From a virus (taxonomy: Duplodnaviria > Heunggongvirae > Uroviricota > Caudoviricetes), in IMG/VR virus record IMGVR_UViG_2711768022_000003: 9,905 bases of DNA; one strand, given 5' to 3'. Position 1 is the stretch's first letter, and every line of letters starts with the position of its first letter. Positions 1,435 to 9,905 of the stretch are shown here, piece by piece. The notes under the pieces were generated by a model. That model did not search any database. It was not told the DNA's origin and saw only the letters and a program-made list of their open reading frames with translations. Made by a program: the position numbers and the translations under genes.

Positions 1435-3168
1435 TTAAAGCGAGCGGATCCCGTAGGACTCAATGTGGTCAGACAGCGTGTCTTCTTTCTCGTACAGCAT
1501 GGCTCTGCCAACCGCCATAATCAGCGCAACTGCACCATCGATTTTGTTTTCCGCCTGCTCTTTGACGGGTTTCACCACATCATCGTTACCCGGCATGTTT
1601 TTGCCGACCACGTTGCCGATACACCAGGTCATGATGGGATTGCCGTCATGATGAAAACGTCCCGATTCAATCGCTGCTTCCAGCTCTTTCATCGGATCGG
1701 ACATATTGGTGAAGTTCTGGACGATAGTGACGGGATTCAGGTCTTCATCAGCAAGGTCATGTGACAACCCGGTCGCCCCGAAGGGGTCGATGGGTGACTC
1801 ACTGACCGGGCTGATTTTGTTCGCCGCTTTGGCCTCCTCGAGGATGTAGCGATAATCCACCTCCGCACCATCGGTAACGGTCAGAACGCCCATTTCCACC
1901 CATTTCTGAAAGCGTTCGGCTGTCCGTCGATCTTCATTTTTCTCGACGCTGTACACCGTGTCATACGGTACCCAGAAACGCGGGGCCACACTGTAGTAAT
2001 GCGTTTTACCGTCAATCTCGCGGGTATAAAGTCGCGCCATGCTGTTCATATCCAGCTTACGCGCCAGGTCAAAGGCCAGAATGCACGGCTGCCCCTCGAA
2101 CTGCTCAAGGGTCAGTGATTTATCCTCGCAGCTCTGCCAGCTCACCAAGTTGAAATACGCCGAACGCGCCGACACCCAGATATTGAGGTGTTTTGTTTTA
2201 AAGACGTTTGCCAGACGGGCGTTATTTTTCGCACGCTGCTGCTGACTTAACAAAAATTCGCGATAAACCGACACGCCAATATTTGGATTGGCTTTTTCCA
2301 GCACCTGCGGGCCGGTCCAGTCGTCACCTTCATCAACGGTATAGATGATCCCGAACAGTTCATCGTTAGGCACCGAGCCGTTGAGCATCTCGATGACTTC
2401 CCGCCGCTTGTCGTAGCACGGCCCCTCAATGTTGTACCCGGCGGTGGTGATGGCCCACATCAGTGGCTGACGTCGCGCCCCCATCCCGGTAAGCATTGTG
2501 GTATAAAGCGCATCGGTGGCATGCTCGTGATATTCATCAACCACGGCACAGTGGGGTGATGAACCATCACCTGGGTTGCCGATCAGCGGTTCAAACCGCG
2601 CGCCATCCTCCGGACGGTTCATGTTTGAGGCGTTAACCTCAATCCCGAACGCTTCCGTCAGCATGGGTGTGCGTTTACACATCAGTCGCGCCGGGCGAAA
2701 GACTTCCCACGCCTGTTTCTCTGTCGTGGCACCGGAATACACTTCCGCGCCAAACTCGTTATCACAGGCAAAACAATACAGGGCAACACCGGCAGAGATT
2801 GCTGATTTGCCGTTCTTACGGGGGATTTCGGTGTACACCTCCCGGAAGCGGCGCAACCGGGTGCCTTTATTGACCCAGCCAAACGCACAGCAGATCACAA
2901 ATAGCTGCCACGGCTCCAGCGTGATGGGCATCCGTTTGAATGCCCACTCCCCCTTGGTGTGCGGCAACAGCTGAATAAATTTCGCGGCCCGTTCAGCCAG
3001 GTCCTTGTCGAAGCGGTAACGAAACGACTTACTTTTTTCCGCCATCAGGTCATCAAGATGGCGCTGGCAGGCCTGAATCACAAACTGGCAGGCAACAATC
3101 TTTCCGCGCACGACATCCCGGGCATACTGATTTGCAGCATTTACGTTGGGGTAAGATTTCCGGCTCAT
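1435..3168 (-). CDS. terL: Terminase large subunit (577 aa)
   Basis: 577-aa ORF with ATG start overlapping the terS stop (ATGA at 3165-3168). Size and position between terS and portal fit a phage large terminase; assignment is by gene order and overall resemblance, not by a motif I can cite exactly. Confidence 0.9.
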
Positions 3169-3659
3169 GATTCGATAATTTTCAGAAACGGGTTAGTGGC
3201 TTTCTTCTGCCCCGCCAGGCCAATCAGACGCTGGCGGCTGCTGGGGTCGAGTCCGAGCATTGCCCCCGTGCTGCTCATCTCGGACTCCTGTTCTTTTTTG
3301 GCGGTCAGCTCCGGATTTTTGACCCTGCCGCCCATTGCACCGGTGATGGTGTTGCCCTGTATGGCAATATTTTTCACGGCACGTCGCCAGAACTCATAGG
3401 CCACGCACCACCGCTCAAGTACCGCCAGGTCAGTCACGCACAGCAGGCCCTGACCGCAGAGTTCTTTGGTTGTCAGTTGCCACATGATCGTGGCGAGAGG
3501 GAGATCTTCTTCAGCGAACCACTCTGGTGGCTCAACACCTTTGATGGGCGTAAAAACAGGTTCATCTTTGTTCAGGGCTCGCTTGCCGGGGTTTCCGGCC
3601 AGCGCCTTGCGCGCCGTTGGCTTGGGGCGACGCCCGGAACGCCCCGCCGTTCCAGCCAT
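3165..3659 (-). CDS. terS: Terminase small subunit, P27-like (164 aa)
   Basis: ORF-track start at 3668 is GTG directly abutting the SD. ATG at 3657-3659 has AGGAG 8 nt upstream and gives [20 protein letters not shown]..., a basic Gly/Arg-rich N-terminus typical of P27-family small terminases. Stop overlaps the terL start. Confidence 0.85.
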
Positions 3660-3693
3660 ATGCGGCACTCCTGGTTAAATTTCATTTTTCGCG

Positions 3694-3780: not shown

Positions 3781-4131
3781 TCACCGGATTCGTTCGCGCG
3801 CTGTTTTCGCTTTATGGCAGGGCCAGCACAGACTCTGCAGGTTGCTGTCTGCGTCTGTTCCGCCATGCGCTTTCGGGATGATGTGGTCGACGGTTTTCGC
3901 CTCGCTCACCACACCGACACGCAGACACAACTGACACAGACCTTTATCGCGCTTCAGAATACGGGCACGAATCACCGTCCATTTTGAGCCATAGCCACGC
4001 TGGTGGCGGCTCAGTCCGCGCTGGTGCTGCACCCAGCCTTCACCGCGATGTTTATCGCAGTAACCCGAACTGTCTGTGGTTGTACCTGCACATCCACGCT
4101 TACGGCAGGCACGTGGGATTAGTGATGGCAT
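3781..4131 (-). CDS. HNH endonuclease (116 aa), terminase-associated type
   Basis: ATG at 4129-4131 with GAGGT 4 nt upstream. Cys-rich N-terminus (CRKRGCAGTTTDSSGYCDKH) and C-terminal HNH signature (DHIIPKAHGGTDADSNLQSLCWPCHKAK). Sits immediately upstream of cos and terS as in HK97-like phages. Confidence 0.9.
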   Translation of the reverse strand: MPSLIPRACRKRGCAGTTTDSSGYCDKHRGEGWVQHQRGLSRHQRGYGSKWTVIRARILKRDKGLCQLCLRVGVVSEAKTVDHIIPKAHGGTDADSNLQSLCWPCHKAKTARERIR

Positions 4132-4420: not shown

Positions 4421-4810
4421 NNNNNNNNNNNNNNNNNNNNNNNNNNNNNNNNNNNNNNNNNNNNNNNNNNNNNNNNNNNNNNNNNNNNNNNNNNNNNNNN
4501 NNNNNNNNNNNNNNNNNNNNNNNNNNNNNNNNNNNNNNNNNNNNNNNNNNNNNNNNNNNNNNNNNNNNNNNNNNNNNNNNNNNNNNNNNNNNNNNNNNNN
4601 NNNNNNNNNNNNNNNNNNNNNNNNNNNNNNNNNNNNNNNNNNNNNNNNNNNNNNNNNNNNNNNNNNNNNNNNNNNNNNNNNNNNNNNNNNNNNNNNNNNN
4701 NNNNNNNNNNNNNNNNNNNNNNNNNNNNNNNNNNNNNNNNNNNNNNNNNNNNNNNNNNNNNNNNNNNNNNNNNNNNNNNNNNNNNNNNNNNNNNNNNNNN
4801 NNNNNNNNNN
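4421..4810. other. Assembly or masking gap (390 N)
   Basis: Uninterrupted run of n from 4421 to 4810; it interrupts the endolysin and the 5' half of Rz. Confidence 0.99.
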
Positions 4811-4900
4811 ACCACCTGGGCCAGTGATTAACACAGATGCTATAGCAACAGCCCCACCACCAATAGCAGCTGCAACAGCCTTGCGTAATGATGGCGACAT
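4811..4900 (-). CDS. SAR endolysin (phage-21 R21-like lysozyme), N-terminal 30 codons only
   Basis: ATG at 4898-4900 overlaps the holin stop (TAATG). N-terminus [30 protein letters not shown] is a Gly/Ala-rich signal-arrest-release domain resembling phage 21 R21 as recalled. The rest is in the gap. Confidence 0.8.
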
Positions 4901-5115
4901 TATTCACCTCTCGCAGCCTTACGCTTGTCTTCTCTTATTTTGAAATACAGATTTGTCAGATAAGTCAGAAGCCCCAGAAGCAGACTTCCCAGCACACCAA
5001 TCGCAGCCCACTGTGATGGACTGACCTGATCCAACCACTGCAAAAACCAGTAGCCGGCACTGCCGGCGGAGGTGCCGTAGGCAATGCCTGTTGATATTTT
5101 TTCCATCTGATACAT
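4900..5115 (-). CDS. Class II holin / pinholin (S21, EssD-like), 71 aa with dual-start motif
   Basis: Translation [71 protein letters not shown] resembles phage 21 S21 and DLP12 EssD as recalled. Met1 and Met4 give the typical antiholin/holin dual start. Two TM segments and a charged C-terminus. Confidence 0.9.
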
Positions 5116-5144
5116 ATCCCGCCCCCCGACAGACCTGTGCTATC

Positions 5145-5182
5145 GGAAAGAAAAAAGGCCATCAGCAAAACTCTGATGGCCT
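5145..5182 (-). terminator. Rho-independent terminator upstream of the lysis cassette
   Basis: Perfect 9-bp stem ggccatcag (5157-5165) / ctgatggcc (5173-5181) with 7-nt loop; on the minus strand it is followed by TTTTTTCTTTCC (complement of 5145-5156). Confidence 0.65.
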
Positions 5183-5290
5183 GAATCACCTTTACCAATA
5201 TTGTATGAAAAAACACGCACGACTAATTGACAATAATTTTCATTTCCATTAAAAAAGATCGCGTAGCATTCTTAATTCATGAGGAACTTT

Positions 5291-5356
5291 ACCCGCCAGC
5301 AATCTGAGTAGCGAAAGCTGTTCATCCCCAATGTTTTTGCTGGCGGGTCCTTTTTT
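5291..5356 (+). terminator. Plus-strand-oriented terminator-like hairpin (11-bp perfect stem plus T6)
   Basis: acccgccagca (5291-5301) pairs perfectly with tgctggcgggt (5338-5348). The 36-nt loop contains an agc-GAAA-gct mini-hairpin. The stem is followed on the plus strand by cc + tttttt (5351-5356). On the minus strand no T-tract follows. Confidence 0.3.
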
Positions 5357-5795
5357 CTACGGTCCTCCTCCCCGGAGGGGGGCATTTCATTATTTTTCTA
5401 ATCGTTACTGGTGAGAAGGCGGAAGAAAAAGCCAGTTCTTCGCCCCTAAATAACAGCATGATTCCAGTCCATGCAAAATCTGATTTCCAGCTCACACATA
5501 CCGAGCACTGTACAAAAAACCGCCAGCCAAGGCAGTTAAGAGTGTGTTCCCGGGGTTTGCTTAGAATATTTTGTAAGTTGTCCGAAGAGATATTTACAAC
5601 ACCAGAATGATGAATCATCAGTCCCCTGCCAGAGGTTCACTACGTAACCTGACCGACAATGCACCATTCTGGTGCTGAAAAAAGAGCACTGGAACTGCAA
5701 CAAAACAACATCACAGAACAGGAGATGGTAAGGAGTCAGACATTCCCACACAATATTGTGTCAGTGCAAATAACAACCTTCGTCTCAAATCTCGC

Positions 5796-5870
<75 letters not shown>

Positions 5871-5873
5871 ATA

Positions 5874-5949
<76 letters not shown>

Positions 5950-5951
5950 GC

Positions 5952-6028
5952 TGGCCCACCACCGAGGACTCGAACCTCGCACCGTCAACTTAGAAGGTTG
6001 ATGCTCTATCCGGATGAGCTAGTGGTGG
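5952..6028 (-). tRNA. tRNA-Arg (anticodon UCU), 77 nt
   Basis: CCACCACTAGCTCATCCGGATAGAGCATCAACCTTCTAAGTTGACGGTGCGAGGTTCGAGTCCTCGGTGGTGGGCCA: acceptor CCACCAC/GTGGTGG, anticodon loop CTTCTAA, T-loop TTCGAGT, CCA encoded. Unusual C1-G72 first pair. Confidence 0.8.
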
Positions 6029-6029
6029 T

Positions 6030-6106
6030 TGGTGGCCCTTGCTGGACTTGAACCAGCGACCTGGCGATTATGAGTCGCTCGCTCTGACCAACTGAGCTAA
6101 AGGGCC
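6030..6106 (-). tRNA. tRNA with CAU anticodon, most likely tRNA-Ile2 (lysidine type, reads AUA), 77 nt
   Basis: GGCCCTTTAGCTCAGTTGGTCAGAGCGAGCGACTCATAATCGCCAGGTCGCTGGTTCAAGTCCAGCAAGGGCCACCA. Anticodon arm GCGACTCATAATCGC and T-arm GGTCGCTGGTTCAAGTCCAGC resemble E. coli ileX rather than elongator Met as recalled. Ile-versus-Met identity cannot be settled without a classifier. Confidence 0.8.
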
Positions 6107-6115
6107 GGAGGCAGA

Positions 6116-6144
6116 ATAATAACCATATGTCATCACATCTGCAA
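6116..6144 (-). promoter_or_regulatory. Candidate sigma70 promoter for the tRNA array
   Basis: On the minus strand: TTGCAG (complement of 6139-6144), 17-bp spacer, TATTAT (complement of 6116-6121), then 9 nt to the mature 5' end of the first tRNA. Motif-only prediction. Confidence 0.3.
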
Positions 6145-6192
6145 ACTCATCTGACCACCAGCACGTTTAACGTCCTGTGCCGTTTTTCAGGT

Positions 6193-6220
6193 ATAAAAAA
6201 ACCCGCTCATCGGCGGGTTT
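6193..6220 (-). terminator. Intrinsic terminator downstream of the ORF6N gene
   Basis: Perfect stem aaacccgc (6199-6206) / gcgggttt (6213-6220) with 6-nt loop; on the minus strand the GC core is followed by about 7 T (complement of 6195-6201). Confidence 0.6.
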
Positions 6221-6295
6221 AAGCTGTGTGGCGTAGTAACCACTCTTAACAGGATATTCAACTTTTTACGATCGTAAAGTTTTCGGAAAAAATTT

Positions 6296-6859
6296 TTAAA
6301 ACCGCATCAACCGCTCCACCAGTTGCTCTTTACGGGCAACGATCCACCCGTGTTGCTCCAGATAAAATTTAAACCGTTCCAGAGTACATACCATCGCATC
6401 GGCGGGTACCTTTTCCGTGAACTCAACCTGACCGTGTTTATCGAAGTGGCTCAGTAATGCGCATCCATCATTTTCGATAGATGTGTTTTGTGCCGCTGGT
6501 GGCTGTTTCTGGTTGAAATAACAGTCTTCCAGTTTTTCGAACACTTCCCACGCCTGATCGGTTTCGAGCATTTTGGCGTGACGGGCTGCGCCACGTTCTG
6601 TCCAGAGGATGAGGGAGCGAACGTTACGGGCAATTTTCACAGAAACTCTTAAAGAGTTTTCGTTCTTCAACTCTCGTAACGCATCACCTTCTATCAGGAA
6701 AAAATGTTTACCTTCTATAAACCGTTCTTTGTTTCGATTGAAATTGTTTGTCAAACGCTGGCGCTCTGTTCCGTACAAATCAGCCAGCAGCTCTGTTGTC
6801 ATGACAGGAAGATGGTTATGCGTAAGTGACGGGAGTTTTTCAATAGACGTGCGATTCAT
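6296..6859 (-). CDS. ORF6N-domain protein (phage antirepressor-like DNA-binding protein), 187 aa
   Basis: Start chosen at ATG 6857-6859 (AAAGGA 7 nt upstream); the ORF-track start at 7057 is GTG with no SD. N-terminal half (VMTTELLADLYGTERQRLTNNFNRNKERFIEGKHFFLIEGDALRELK ... SLILWTERGAARHAKMLETDQAWEVFEKLEDCYF) matches the ORF6N / KilA-N-like pattern from memory. The C-terminal ~70 aa are unassigned. Confidence 0.65.
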   Translation of the reverse strand: MNRTSIEKLPSLTHNHLPVMTTELLADLYGTERQRLTNNFNRNKERFIEGKHFFLIEGDALRELKNENSLRVSVKIARNVRSLILWTERGAARHAKMLETDQAWEVFEKLEDCYFNQKQPPAAQNTSIENDGCALLSHFDKHGQVEFTEKVPADAMVCTLERFKFYLEQHGWIVARKEQLVERLMRF

Positions 6860-7065
6860 AGACATGTCCTTTCGAATATTTTGATTTACCCCTTTTGAGA
6901 GGGTGACCGGGCGCTCAAAACCGTCGAAAGTCGGCGGGCGTATTTCCATTGCTGGTATTGTATTAGCCGCACACCCGGTCATAAACCAAGAATTCTGGAC
7001 ACAAAAAAACCACATGGCTATCGGGTGTGGATACCGCTTTCGAGGTGTTTTGAGCACCGCGGGGA

Positions 7066-7094: not shown

Positions 7095-7218
7095 CACCGT
7101 CAGGTTCCAATCATCGGGTGGTGAGACGCACAGGGTTGGAACTACCGGGAAACCGACCGGCGAGCTTTTCAGCTCCCCCATGCGCCCCACCATAATTCAG
7201 ATGTGCGCGTGCATACGA

Positions 7219-7244
7219 CAATAAAAAACACGCTCGCGGCGTGT
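7219..7244 (-). terminator. tR'-like terminator downstream of the late promoter
   Basis: Stem acacgc (7228-7233) / gcgtgt (7239-7244) with 5-nt loop; on the minus strand it is followed by TTTTTATTG (complement of 7219-7227). About 75 nt downstream of the predicted pR' -10. Confidence 0.45.
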
Positions 7245-7305
7245 GTCTGTCGCGGTCTCTATCCGGGGTTCCAATCCCGACGCCAGATTTTGCTGGCGCG
7301 TGAGG

Positions 7306-7335
7306 AATATAGCCCCGGACAATGTGTCTGGTCAA
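7306..7335 (-). promoter_or_regulatory. Late promoter pR'-like (probable Q-utilisation region)
   Basis: Minus strand: -35 TTGACC (complement of 7330-7335) starts 5 nt after the Q stop; 18-bp spacer; -10 TATATT (complement of 7306-7311). Position immediately downstream of Q matches lambdoid pR'. Confidence 0.5.
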
Positions 7336-7339
7336 GCAC

Positions 7340-7726
7340 CTACATAATTCGTTCTACGTATCTGTCCATCTCCAGCCGGATATCAAGCATCATCAACATG
7401 CCATCAATAACCCCTTCCGCTTTCTGCAGGCGCTTGCCAATACAGGTATCCGAACACCCATGTTTCCGTGCCAGACTCATAAAAGTCATTCCACCTACGT
7501 AATAATCCACCAGCAAATCGTGCAAATCCTGATTTTTCTTGTTCAACCGGGCCATACAGCCACAAATTATCATTGCATCATCATCAGAACACTGAGGGCG
7601 TGATTTCACTTTCGACGGAATTAACCCTTTAAAACCAGCAGCGATCGACGCCCAGGATACATCTTCATGAGTGTTTGCAGCCCAAGCCCCCCACCGTTCC
7701 ATAACCTGCTGAATATCACGCGCCAT
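7340..7726 (-). CDS. Q: Late-gene antitermination protein Q (phage 82 / QuuD-type), 128 aa
   Basis: Start chosen at ATG 7724-7726 (AGGTGA 5 nt upstream) rather than the upstream ATG at 7745-7747. Translation [61 protein letters not shown] ... [23 protein letters not shown] resembles DLP12 QuuD as recalled. Overlaps the rusA 3' end by 11 nt. Confidence 0.88.
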
Positions 7727-8087
7727 CGTTATCACCTGTGATTTCATAAATCTTCACGCCCAGTCGCCCACCAGGAACGAGCTGACCGCGCACAATATTG
7801 ATTTCATCAAACTGCTCGTCGTCTATGAGTAGTCCGGCATGCGTCAGCGCATCCAGTGGTGCTTTCAGGATATTGTCCAGGTCACGACGGCGCTTATCCG
7901 GTGGCTCTGCAATAATCTTTATCGCCAGCCTTCCGGACAGGTTTAATTTCAGCCGCTGCTGGCGAACAATTAGCGTCACATCACGGCGATAACGCTCACC
8001 AACTTTTGATACAAAATATGTGCTGCCACGACGTCGCCAGTAAGTATTCACCGTCGGCGGATAAGGTAAAATAAACTCATGGCGCAT
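7716..8087 (-). CDS. rusA: RusA Holliday-junction resolvase (123 aa)
   Basis: ATG at 8085-8087 with GGAGG upstream. Translation carries the RusA-type acidic catalytic cluster ([11 protein letters not shown] ... LLIDDEQ) and the expected length. Nin-region position upstream of Q. Confidence 0.88.
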
Positions 8088-8344
8088 CAGCGCAGCACCT
8101 CCTGCACCATTTTTTCAAACTTTCCAACTTTGGTTTCCAGCTCTGCCACACAATCAACGAGCTCATCCACCGCTTTTTGTGCGCGATGTTTCGCCTGCAT
8201 CAGTTCCCTGAGCGCTGGCACCATATCCCGACGAATGGCATCTTTTGTTACACCTGTTTTTTCCAGTTGTTCCGCCTGTCGCAACATTTCCTGCGCGTGT
8301 TTACGCAATTGTTCAGAGGTAAAAGTCATTGTCTGGTTGTTCAA
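8087..8344 (-). CDS. Hypothetical small helical protein (85 aa from TTG, or 80 aa from ATG at 8327-8329)
   Basis: Minus ORF between helicase and rusA. TTG at 8342-8344 has GGAG 8 nt upstream and overlaps the helicase stop (TTGA). Stop overlaps the rusA ATG (ATGA). Translation (MNNQT)MTFTSEQLRKHAQEMLRQAEQLEKTG... is charged and helical-looking; no family recognised. Confidence 0.5.
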   Translation of the reverse strand: MNNQTMTFTSEQLRKHAQEMLRQAEQLEKTGVTKDAIRRDMVPALRELMQAKHRAQKAVDELVDCVAELETKVGKFEKMVQEVLR

Positions 8345-9732
8345 AAGAAACGCTCCATCTTACTGCTGTCGGTACGTGTATTGCTGTATCTGCGCGGCTG
8401 GGGCTGCCGCATTGGGGTGGAAAGAACCTGTGCGCTTTCCTGGTCCACAGGCAGAAAATGTCCGTTATAAAAACGCCGGTAAATCGTCCCCAGAGAACCG
8501 TTACGTTGTTTCGTGATATTAATTTCTGCTATGCCTGTAGCCTGTGTATCCGGGTTGTACACTTCATCCCTGTAAAGCATCAGAATGATGTCTGCATCCG
8601 CCTCTATTTCTCCGGAATTTTTCAGGTCTGAGTTCATGGGACGTTTATTGGGTCTGGACTCCACACCGCGGGAGAGCTGGCTCAGCGCAATCAACGGAAA
8701 ACCACCGGATTTTGCCAGGCCTTTAAGCCCCTTTGAGATTTCACCCACGGCAAGGTCATGACGCCCCGTGGTTCGGGTTTTTATCAGCCCGAGATAATCA
8801 ACCACCACCAGCGCCGTTTCCGGATGTTTAATCAGATGGTGTTTCGTTGTTGCGCATATCTCATCAATGGTCAGGTTCGCCTGGTCCACCATCCAGATAT
8901 TGCGCCCGGTCATCCGCCCCACCCCTTGTGAGAAACGCGCCCAGTCTTCATCTTCAAAGTGAGCCACAGATTTCAGGCGTGATACTGGCATCCCTCCAGC
9001 CGCAGACACCATACGTTCACCAATCTGGATGTTCGCCATCTCCATGGTGAACAGAAGCACACCATGCCCCTGCTCAGTCACCTTGTCGATGATGTCCAGC
9101 GCAAGTTCGGTTTTCCCCATCGAAGGACGGGCGGCAATGAATACCAGGTCTCCGGGCTCCATACCGCCTGTTTTTGCGTCCAGTTCATCAATACCGGTCA
9201 TCAACGTCCTGGATTTCTCCAGCCCCTGATTCCGGCATTCAACACGCTCAACCACTTCCGGAAGCACATCATCAATATGTACCGGCTGAATGACGCCCTT
9301 TCCTGTCGACAGTGTGACCATCATGTTCTGCGCATCCTTCAGGGCATCTTCAGCTGCTTCACAGGTATGCGCATCACGTAATTTCTGCAGCGCCTCATTC
9401 AGTGTTTTTTCTGCATCGCGCAGTGCGGCATTGCGCCGCAACGCTGCAACATAGTGCTCCAGTGAAGACTTCACCCAGGTTTTACGCCCGGTATCAGTAA
9501 TCACCGGGGCAAGTTCCGGCATCTCATTACACAACAGCACGGGGTCAATCACTCCTGAAACACGGGCCTGTCTGCAGATGCCTGTGTAGATATCCCGATA
9601 CGCTCGTACAGAAAAAATGTCCGCCGGTAGTGTGATCAGAATATCCATCACTTCATGATCTGCCCCACGCAGAAAGAATGCGCCAATGACAGCGCCTTCC
9701 AGGTCATCATTACGCCAGACTGGTGTTGTCAT
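8341..9732 (-). CDS. Replicative DNA helicase, DnaB family (463 aa)
   Basis: Start set at ATG 9730-9732 (GAGGTG 7 nt upstream); the ORF-track start at 9873 is GTG. Walker A motif (AARPSMGKTELAL) and DnaB C-terminal domain features (VVVDYLGLI, PLIALSQLSRGVESRPNKRPMNSDL, DADIILMLYRDEVY). Confidence 0.9.
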   Translation of the reverse strand: MTTPVWRNDDLEGAVIGAFFLRGADHEVMDILITLPADIFSVRAYRDIYTGICRQARVSGVIDPVLLCNEMPELAPVITDTGRKTWVKSSLEHYVAALRRNAALRDAEKTLNEALQKLRDAHTCEAAEDALKDAQNMMVTLSTGKGVIQPVHIDDVLPEVVERVECRNQGLEKSRTLMTGIDELDAKTGGMEPGDLVFIAARPSMGKTELALDIIDKVTEQGHGVLLFTMEMANIQIGERMVSAAGGMPVSRLKSVAHFEDEDWARFSQGVGRMTGRNIWMVDQANLTIDEICATTKHHLIKHPETALVVVDYLGLIKTRTTGRHDLAVGEISKGLKGLAKSGGFPLIALSQLSRGVESRPNKRPMNSDLKNSGEIEADADIILMLYRDEVYNPDTQATGIAEINITKQRNGSLGTIYRRFYNGHFLPVDQESAQVLSTPMRQPQPRRYSNTRTDSSKMERFF

Positions 9733-9905
9733 GCAGCCACACCTCTGATACAAGAACGGTAGCTGGGCCAGTTGAACGACAACCAGTTGCGCCCCCCGTC
9801 TGTGATCCTGTCGGCAATGCGGGGGCTGATGAACGCTGGATTTGCCCCTATATTTCCAGACACCTGTTATCACTTAACCCATTACTGGCTTGCTGCCGTA
9901 GATAT

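Follow-up and report, generated by a model that had tools for sequence, protein, structure and literature searches.

A gene-free gap between the tRNA genes and the holin gene of a lambdoid prophage as a probable mosaic of two non-coding modules

What occupies the long gap, devoid of any evident gene, that separates the tRNA genes from the holin gene in the tailed-phage record IMGVR_UViG_2711768022_000003 of IMG/VR? The stretch of DNA analysed here, referred to as the window, is 9,905 nucleotides (nt) long and represents the replication-to-packaging portion of a lambdoid prophage, whose late operon runs from right to left. The gap extends over 680 nt, from the gene for tRNA-Gly (5796) to the start of a class II holin gene (5115). 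An initial annotation had singled out about 610 nt of it (5183-5795, hereafter the tract) as lacking a convincing gene, and indeed no credible protein gene lies between tRNA-Gly and the holin. That interval equals the gap without the holin leader and a late-strand hairpin (5156-5182), which had been taken for the terminator of the lysis cassette and is better described as a late-strand intrinsic terminator upstream of the holin gene. We consider it probable that the tract is a mosaic of two independent and widespread non-coding modules, situated in the moron slot between the antiterminator gene Q and the holin gene S. Both modules are so far unannotated and are of known general kinds, the one (module A) a tRNA-operon trailer RNA with a terminator, the other (module B) a putative antisense gene for a small RNA (sRNA) close to the holin, together with an insulating terminator.

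No coding signal is evident in the tract, and a decayed gene is not supported. Neither its open reading frames (ORFs) nor the 19 stop-free segments of at least 28 amino acids (aa) in all six frames match a Pfam, NCBIfam or PHROG family, and RefSeq annotates nothing in the gap in the nine Escherichia coli genomes that carry the tract sequence at 99.3% identity or more. Known RNA families are equally absent from the gap: between 5116 and 5795 no Rfam 15 family reaches its gathering threshold, the matches at E <= 10 (miRNA precursors, MicA, Qrr and similar) are at chance level, and the families that do pass in the window (tRNAs, C4, isrK, a1b1 and sRNA-Xcc1) all lie outside the tract. A search of the literature on RNA downstream of phage tRNA-Gly or adjoining iss found nothing relevant. 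The base composition and folding potential are nevertheless distinctive, as the initial annotation had observed. The AT-rich part placed at 5190-5290 is reflected in a G+C content of 0.37-0.39 in the intervals spanning 5111-5335, against 0.47-0.58 nearby, and the abundance of hairpins in eight terminator-like sites within 4850-6350, against 1.7 +/- 1.3 in shuffled sequences.

The modularity of the tract emerges from a BLAST comparison with 5,426 complete E. coli genomes, which divides it in two. The holin-side part (5183-5496) recurs at ~85% identity (80-90%) in 1,508 records belonging to 1,427 of the genomes, with 915 chromosomal and 643 plasmid copies, and the tRNA-side part (5511-5780) at ~70% identity in 233 genomes, always on the chromosome; the two are joined in only nine. 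In every locus fetched, module A comes straight after tRNA-Gly, regardless of what follows it, be it TerB/DUF3927 genes or a different type of holin. Module B lies directly upstream of the class II holin gene in the prophage examined (AR_0086), and in ATCC 25922 and one plasmid examined, where holin and lysozyme are deleted, it abuts an Rz remnant. An RNA-encoding region or a regulatory spacer, two of the options that the initial annotation had raised for the tract, are hence supported, both halves being preserved as blocks of non-coding sequence across hundreds to thousands of replicons. Further support comes from the strand-specific conserved structure of module A, and from a conserved promoter-like site and intrinsic terminator on the opposite strand of module B, at the position taken elsewhere by the sRNAs PasA and PasC.

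Module A (5510-5795, minus strand) is a non-coding 3' trailer of the tRNA operon, ~285 nt in length and with an intrinsic terminator at its end, as described by an alignment (A1), a consensus fold and counts of paired positions. A pattern search with its central hairpin recovered at least 120 IMG/VR contigs that carry the module. Among the matches listed, the hairpin starts 124-143 nt after the tRNA 3' end in 106 of 120 contigs, a terminator of the form GCC..GGCGGUUUUUU follows 54-162 nt downstream in 113 of 120, and at least 60 distinct full-length versions are found, 26 of them short (286-315 nt, the window type) and 34 long (390-402 nt). The 26 short versions constitute alignment A1, and their consensus fold runs from a domain closed by GCACUG/CAGUGC and followed by a U run, through a long hairpin, the small hairpin GGUGUUGUAAAUAUC and a short 3-bp helix, to the terminator.

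The first of these elements, the P1 domain (5686-5767, minus strand), consists of the near-invariant GCACUG/CAGUGC helix around two small covarying hairpins and is followed by the U run at 5678-5683; P1 helices 1-3 include double changes between AU and GC (13 versus 13 sequences at columns 49/62). The long hairpin (5604-5670, minus strand) has a lower stem of 19-20 bp, a 3'-side bulge of the type CUGGCAGGG (5624-5632) and an apical stem of 5 bp, in which 5646-5650 pair with 5633-5637. Folded singly, 23 distinct variants of this hairpin adopt broadly one shape, with the lower stem at 19-20 bp, a largely conserved (C)UGGCAGGG-type bulge on the 3' side and, in most, an apical stem of 5-6 bp, whose sequence differs by class with the pairing kept (AGGUU/AACCU, GGAGAU/AUUUCC, AGAGAU/GUCUCU, GGGCU/AGCCC). 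The lower stem is 96.5% paired, and 10 of its positions vary only via G-U. Directly after it comes the small conserved hairpin GGUGUUGUAAAUAUC (5589-5603, minus strand; helix 2, 94% paired), in which GUGUUGUAA is invariant, and the module closes with the intrinsic terminator (5512-5537, minus strand) detected by the terminator scan, with its stem at 5518-5537 (helix 7, 100% paired) and its U run at 5512-5517.

Overall, pairing holds in 98.8% of the 1,137 pair cells of the alignment, whereas sliding the partners by one to three columns lowers it to 36-60%. Double changes occur at four pairs. The fold is strand-specific, since many of the changes pass through G-U: pairing on the opposite strand drops to 82.0%, and that of the long helix (helix 4) from 99% on the late strand to 74%. 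Similarly, a covariance model built on the hairpin (R2) gives 77 bits for the late strand and 27 bits for the opposite one. Model R2 finds no match in phage HK022 (E <= 1) or in the loci from E. coli E2348/69 and Sakai.

The simplest reading of this arrangement would be a self-contained tRNA operon with a long structured trailer that would be transcribed together with the tRNAs and ends at 5512-5537. The tRNA operon resembles a self-contained moron because the array is preceded by a promoter-like site (TTTGCA-18-TATTAT, 6116-6145, minus strand), predicted by a consensus scan and sequence reading, and because a terminator identified by the terminator scan (6199-6220, minus strand) lies upstream of the array, after the antirepressor gene. 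A separate promoter within module A was considered and rejected, as the inspected alignments show a good -10 (TACAAT) only in some variants and it is not conserved. Two roles for the module can be envisaged. It may stop the constitutive transcription of the tRNA genes before the lysis genes in the lysogen, and it may provide a processing site of the RNase III or RNase E type that frees the tRNAs and leaves a stable, terminator-bearing RNA. The latter could, by analogy, work like a 3' external transcribed spacer (3'-ETS) or a PasD-type small RNA.

Several known systems share features with module A. Phage RNase III processing sites have the shape of a long stem with an asymmetric internal loop, placed between functional units; phage T7 carries RNase III processing hairpins, and the tRNA cluster of phage T4 includes the stable RNAs C and D, which are co-transcribed with the tRNAs and whose function is unknown. 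Module A resembles them in its long, imperfect hairpin, whose internal loop is asymmetric and which stands between units of a polycistronic phage transcript, but it has no sequence relation to them, and the likeness is one of shape and position. In position it also corresponds to a 3'-ETS, lying on the same strand between the 3' end of the last tRNA, tRNA-Gly, and the operon terminator. The tRNA-trailer RNA 3'ETS-leuZ, said to have been described by Lalaouna et al. in 2015, is reportedly ~50 nt long, and by analogy the 3' processing of tRNA-Gly would release from module A an RNA with a hairpin and a U tail; unlike 3'ETS-leuZ, module A measures ~285 nt, is highly structured and is phage-borne.

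A third likeness is to STnc100 (RF02076), PasD and EcOnc27, which are also late-strand RNAs of the Q-to-S slot with a single-stranded stretch that leads into an intrinsic terminator. What sets module A apart is its fusion to a tRNA operon and the absence of any conserved internal promoter evident in the alignments. The short variant of the window lacks the STnc100-resembling core, and no STnc100 match occurs in the window at E <= 10. Such a core, with CGGGAGGCACCCG in the closing helix, is found in the long module A variants of other phages. In the 34 long variants among the matches listed (for example, locus L089, 7579-7771), ~60 nt of the trailer are swapped for a ~150-nt cassette with CGGGAGGCACCCG within a GAGGCG/CGCCUC helix. 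The resemblance of L089 to STnc100/PasD/EcOnc27 amounts to 17.5 bits (E 0.07), below the STnc100 gathering score of 47. These variants suggest an exchange of cassettes between tRNA trailers and known prophage sRNAs.

Module B (~5140-5497), whose limits were set by BLAST and alignment, is a holin-linked leader block that moves as a unit with class II holin genes. Across 11 distinct variants, its conservation has two peaks, at 5160-5199 (0.95) and at 5300-5359 (0.92-0.98). The first contains the late-strand intrinsic terminator (5150-5182, minus strand; stem 5156-5182, U run 5150-5155), which lies ~40 nt upstream of the holin start codon and is conserved at 0.95. The second is the most conserved part of the module, and since its U run is on the plus strand only, it would terminate transcription that runs against the late operon. 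A G+C-rich hairpin with a U run, the hallmark of an intrinsic terminator, is thus predicted from the sequence at three places around the tract, 5537-5518 and 5182-5156 on the minus strand and 5291-5356 on the plus strand.

Upstream of this plus-strand terminator lies a predicted promoter-like site, TTGACA (5227-5232) and, 17 nt on, TAAAAA (5250-5255), which points opposite to the late operon. In sigma-70-like site scoring it ranks first, both strands considered, in the window copy, in the plasmid pEC244_2 (L005), in ATCC 25922 (L004) and in locus L214, and in the AR_0086 variant (L003) an overlapping reading, TTGACA-18-AAAAAT, scores marginally higher. The TTGACA is invariant in all module B variants. 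Together, the promoter-like site and terminator outline a candidate sRNA of ~95 nt (5262-5356, plus strand), with a single-stranded 5' part, a 12-bp stem (5291-5302 with 5337-5348), a GAAA-capped inner hairpin and a U6 tail (5351-5356); the plus strand from 5260 to 5400 folds at -49.7 kcal/mol (z = -3.9). A second G+C-rich hairpin with a U-rich stretch follows on the same strand (5362-5383) in the window type and is degraded in the other module B variants. On the minus strand, even the best promoter sites that could drive a short sRNA with its end at 5150 are weak and lack conservation.

By analogy, the plus-strand unit most likely makes an Hfq-type small RNA comparable to PasA and PasC. These RNAs of the enteropathogenic E. 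coli (EPEC) strain E2348/69, 85 and 79 nt long, are Hfq-dependent and have been verified by Northern blotting and by RNA interaction by ligation and sequencing (RIL-seq) (PMC8550237, table S6); their counterparts in the enterohaemorrhagic E. coli (EHEC) strain Sakai are named EcOnc51 and EcOnc52. The genes pasA, pasC and pasD1 are typically directly adjacent to a conserved holin/lysozyme operon (Zhu et al. 2026), and the candidate likewise lies directly beside such an operon in its lambdoid prophage, on the strand antisense to the late genes. From the published coordinates, PasA and PasC lie between the preceding gene and a class II holin gene on the opposite strand ('> < >'), PasA (743499 to 743415, minus strand) being 214 nt before its holin (743713, plus strand); the candidate of the window starts ~147 nt from the holin start (5115, minus strand). 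The candidate therefore resembles PasA and PasC in being transcribed against the late operon, directly upstream of a class II holin, in a common length range of 79-95 nt, and in both systems a late-strand terminator stands between the sRNA gene and the holin, an analogous one preceding the holin in prophage PP2 of E2348/69.

The likeness extends to the predicted signals. In our own reading of the sequences, TTGACA stands 17 nt from an A-rich, T-less hexamer in each case, theirs being T(C/G)A(G/A)AA; in the sequences from E2348/69 and Sakai, PasA is preceded by TTGACA-17-TCAGAA and PasD/EcOnc27 by the hexamer TAAAAA. PasA and PasC end in an AGCCAGC...GCUGGCU stem with poly-U, and the candidate likewise has a GCCAGC(A) arm with poly-U. 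The predicted seed of PasA lies in and beside the GCCAGCA terminator arm, and in the same place the candidate has its own predicted seed, GCCAGCAAUC, which would correspond to the target motif UUGCUGGC. Unlike PasA and PasC, the candidate has a longer stem (12 bp) and a structured loop of 34 nt. Moreover, PasA and PasC have been reported mainly from EPEC and EHEC, whereas the candidate occurs in prophages of the extraintestinal and avian pathogenic E. coli (ExPEC/APEC) type, in Shigella and on plasmids (by iss in one examined).

Other occupants of this position deserve mention. In PP2 of E2348/69 (L007, 3762-3870, minus strand), a second unit resembling PasC follows PasA in tandem; it carries a TTGACA and a terminator of its own, scores 83 bits with the Pas model, ends near the reported 3' end (743264) of a 236-nt minor form of PasA and may explain that form. 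In the Qin prophage of K-12 (L353, 4806-4976), the 56-aa gene ynfU lies antisense and directly upstream of the holin gene essQ, without DNA similarity to module B. With ynfU sharing slot and orientation but not DNA sequence, the position seems to serve generally as a landing site for differing small antisense cargo. An antisense sRNA upstream of all class II holins was rejected as a rule, since among 62 holin loci from GTDB species a clean antisense terminator was present only in the Escherichia/Shigella copies and one PasA locus.

Homology to PasA and PasC is not demonstrated, the similarity being one of position, orientation, size and design only. The criterion used by Zhu et al. (2026) is blastn similarity with a query coverage >75%, which the candidate lacks: blastn at word sizes 7-9 gives no alignment of PasA or PasC with the tract or its 99% identical copies. 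A covariance model built from 15 Pas variants (R1) misses the window copy at E <= 10 and gives 22 bits (E 0.02) for AR_0086, 13 bits for L214 and 11 bits for ATCC 25922. Since, in addition, GCCAGC/GCTGGC stems are common in unrelated terminators, the candidate is left outside the family.

These three results weigh against reading the plus-strand unit as a Pas-like riboregulator, and they are joined by others. A search with blastn (word size 7) against PasD, AsxR, AgvB and EcOnc27 yields nothing above chance. The -10 hexamer on the plus strand (TAAAAA) is without the final T that is usually highly conserved, and it did not pass the standard scan. Duplex energies of the candidate with the eight translation starts of the window are no better than those of shuffled sRNA (z -0.25 to +1.0). 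The module B variants, drawn entirely from E. coli, Shigella and viral contigs, are too similar (85-99%) for covariation to be seen, and their conservation could hence reflect a recent spread together with the holin and iss. For module A, the changes in the lower stem of the long hairpin are mostly single-sided G-U transitions, with few double compensations.

How the two modules might work together can nonetheless be outlined. In the lysogen, the tRNA promoter would be active, and transcription would halt at the module A terminator, with any leakage caught by the terminator at 5156-5182; because these terminators would stop tRNA transcription, the holin would stay silent. After induction, Q-modified polymerase would pass all of them. 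The use of late-operon terminators that are read through only by Q-modified polymerase, and whose terminated product can be a regulatory RNA, has precedents in StxS and in lambda tR'/6S (PMC7547250). The terminators of those two lie immediately downstream of pR', whereas those of the window are ~1.2-2.2 kb further on, after the tRNA operon and before the holin. Once cut from the tRNAs, the trailer could be retained as a structured RNA. Independently of it, the plus-strand unit would be expressed and might act in regulation as a small RNA or, at the minimum, pair in antisense with late read-through RNA.

What the analysis shows are sequence features and the way in which they are conserved, linked and biased towards one strand; from these we infer that either module may be transcribed, that the trailer may be processed, and that both could act in trans. 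Taken jointly, module A would be an undescribed phage RNA family (~290-400 nt, fused to the tRNA-Gly genes of lambdoid phages), with the bulged hairpin as a processing or protein-binding site and the 3' part as a small RNA whose cassette can be exchanged, short in the window and with an STnc100-like core in other phages. Module B would contribute, through its plus-strand unit, a novel riboregulator of the Hfq type, found in about a quarter of complete E. coli genomes and on hundreds of plasmids (by iss in the one examined). This joint reading is put forward tentatively, as possible rather than probable.

The explanation that competes with it most seriously does without any trans-acting RNA. 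The tract would then be a purely cis-acting spacer, composed of stacked insulating terminators and linkers kept by recombination, and the plus-strand hairpin with its U6 would merely block antisense transcription that enters from the lysis or bor/iss side. The late strand does carry three terminators (6199-6220, 5518-5537 and 5156-5182) on the way from the antirepressor gene to the holin, and both module boundaries match mosaic junctions. Further, bor/iss points towards the lysis genes in related prophages, and in plasmid pEC244_2 iss lies upstream of the plus-strand terminator on the same strand. A spacer of this kind would not, however, account for a properly spaced TTGACA-17-TAAAAA upstream of the plus-strand terminator in all variants, nor for the structure of module A, which exceeds the needs of a terminator (P1, the long hairpin, its largely conserved bulge and the invariant GUGUUGUAA). 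Moreover, the slot holds proven sRNA genes in E2348/69 and Sakai. On balance, the purely cis-acting spacer is plausible but less likely. In pEC244_2 itself (2501-2807), module B sits next to iss and against an Rz/Rz1 remnant; this is the one plasmid, among the 643 plasmid copies, in which the adjacency to iss was read.

Explanations that invoke a protein fare far worse. A decayed moron, the remnant of a gene for a toxin, porin, esterase, TerB or similar once located between the tRNAs and the holin, had been suggested by the initial annotation and would fit the genes found in this slot in related prophages (TerB/DUF3927, a SASA esterase, stx) and the short hypothetical proteins that the Prokaryotic Genome Annotation Pipeline (PGAP) sometimes predicts there. 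No frame of the tract, however, matches a Pfam, NCBIfam or PHROG family, the sole protein matches are self-like, and both halves are kept as intact non-coding units in many contexts, with frame-breaking indels tolerated. No ORF keeps its position, length or frame among homologues. Those of module A differ in start, length and frame among the 26 variants, and the short ORFs of module B, on both strands, lose starts or gain stops from one variant to the next. A decayed moron is accordingly very improbable.

Equally improbable is a real small protein, whether the 98-aa ORF (5322-5618, minus strand), a 71-aa ORF (5536-5751) or a short plus-strand ORF like YnfU. The tract does contain ORFs of 26-98 aa, and the gene for YnfU upstream of essQ sets a precedent in slot and orientation, but the K-12 region has no DNA similarity to module B, the 71-aa ORF is lost among the 26 module A variants, and the plus-strand ORFs of the AR_0086 variant lack a start or have added stops. 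The 98-aa ORF is present as the initial annotation had described it, rich in Cys and Trp (four of each). A search of 5.8 billion proteins returns six matching clusters, all of Shigella or E. coli 'hypothetical proteins' and either near-identical or restricted to the module B half (46% coverage), and finds no conservation of the ORF beyond near-identical Shigella/E. coli copies. It is judged spurious because it is a chimera across the junction of modules A and B near 5497-5510. The protein-family scans, the protein search and the comparison of ORFs among homologues thus reveal neither an intact, conserved ORF in a clear homologue nor conservation of the 98-aa ORF, and the 'hypothetical proteins' sometimes called in this slot are spurious.

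Least credible of all is a put-like hairpin in module A that modifies RNA polymerase in such a way that transcription begun at the tRNA promoter continues into the lysis genes, since the conserved structured RNA upstream of two terminators and the example of the HK022 put RNAs, structured nascent RNAs that suppress termination (PMC9378689), are outweighed by the phage's own Q antiterminator, by the different architecture of put (two stem-loops, ~70 nt, next to early promoters; PMC9378689), by the failure of model R2 to match HK022 and by the death of the lysogen that constitutive read-through into the holin would bring.

Returning to the mosaic of two non-coding modules, its broader significance lies in the slot that they occupy. 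Prophage sRNAs of the Q-to-S slot (AgvB, AsxR, StxS and PasA-D) rewire host regulation in pathogenic E. coli, and they have been found strain by strain through Hfq cross-linking or RIL-seq. The tract adds two candidates that sequence searches with known sRNAs have missed, one (module B) in ~26% of complete E. coli genomes, with 643 plasmid copies and a place beside the serum-resistance gene iss in the plasmid examined, the other (module A) linked to the tRNA genes that hundreds of phages carry. Should they be transcribed, both would extend the known sRNA repertoire, and module A would offer a concrete case of phage tRNA-operon trailers as RNA regulators. The stacked terminators, for their part, could explain how a constitutive tRNA operon is maintained upstream of a holin gene without death of the lysogen.

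The gene context agrees with this placement. The order of the genes and the Rfam matches between Q and the antirepressor gene locate the tract in the late operon, between Q and the holin. The stx/nmpC-type moron position that the initial annotation had assigned to it was right, this being the Q-to-S moron slot that houses clustered sRNA genes (Tree et al. 2014, PMC4104026). Upstream, the tract is bordered by an array of four tRNA genes (5796-6106, minus strand; ARAGORN, Rfam tRNA matches and RefSeq for the matching prophage), Met/Ile2(cat), Arg(tct), Thr(tgt) and Gly(tcc), the last at 5796-5870 (minus strand, ARAGORN). ARAGORN calls the first of them (6030-6106, minus strand) a Met tRNA with anticodon CAT, and RefSeq lists the corresponding tRNA of CFSAN029787 as tRNA-Ile, meaning an ileZ-like lysidine tRNA of the kind found in Shiga toxin (Stx) phages. 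Downstream, the border is the class II holin gene of the P21 S type (4900-5115, minus strand; Pfam PF04971 Phage_holin_2_1, E 1.5e-35; RefSeq). In the near-identical prophage of CFSAN029787, a YdfR fragment, lysozyme and a lysis protein come after the holin; in the window, a masked run of 390 N (4421-4810) covers part of the lysis cassette, and its lysis genes can therefore be read only in part.

The other genes of the window are, like the holin gene, all on the minus strand: DnaB helicase (8341-9873), RusA (7716-8087), antiterminator Q (7340-7747), the ORF6N antirepressor (6296-7057), HNH (3781-4131), TerS (3165-3668), TerL (1435-3168) and portal (85-1332). Between Q and the antirepressor gene (7114-7312, minus strand), Rfam matches to C4 antisense RNA (71 bits), isrK (77.5 bits) and the a1/b1 C4 target (50 bits) form a cluster that corresponds to an antirepressor control module like P1/P7 immI or Gifsy-1 IsrK, where the late promoter pR' is expected. 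A full-length match to sRNA-Xcc1 (77.4 bits, gathering score 53) lies at 6897-6980 (minus strand), within the 5' part of the antirepressor frame. Finally, the HNH endonuclease gene directly upstream of TerS, TerL and portal represents the HK97-type arrangement of HNH-assisted packaging.

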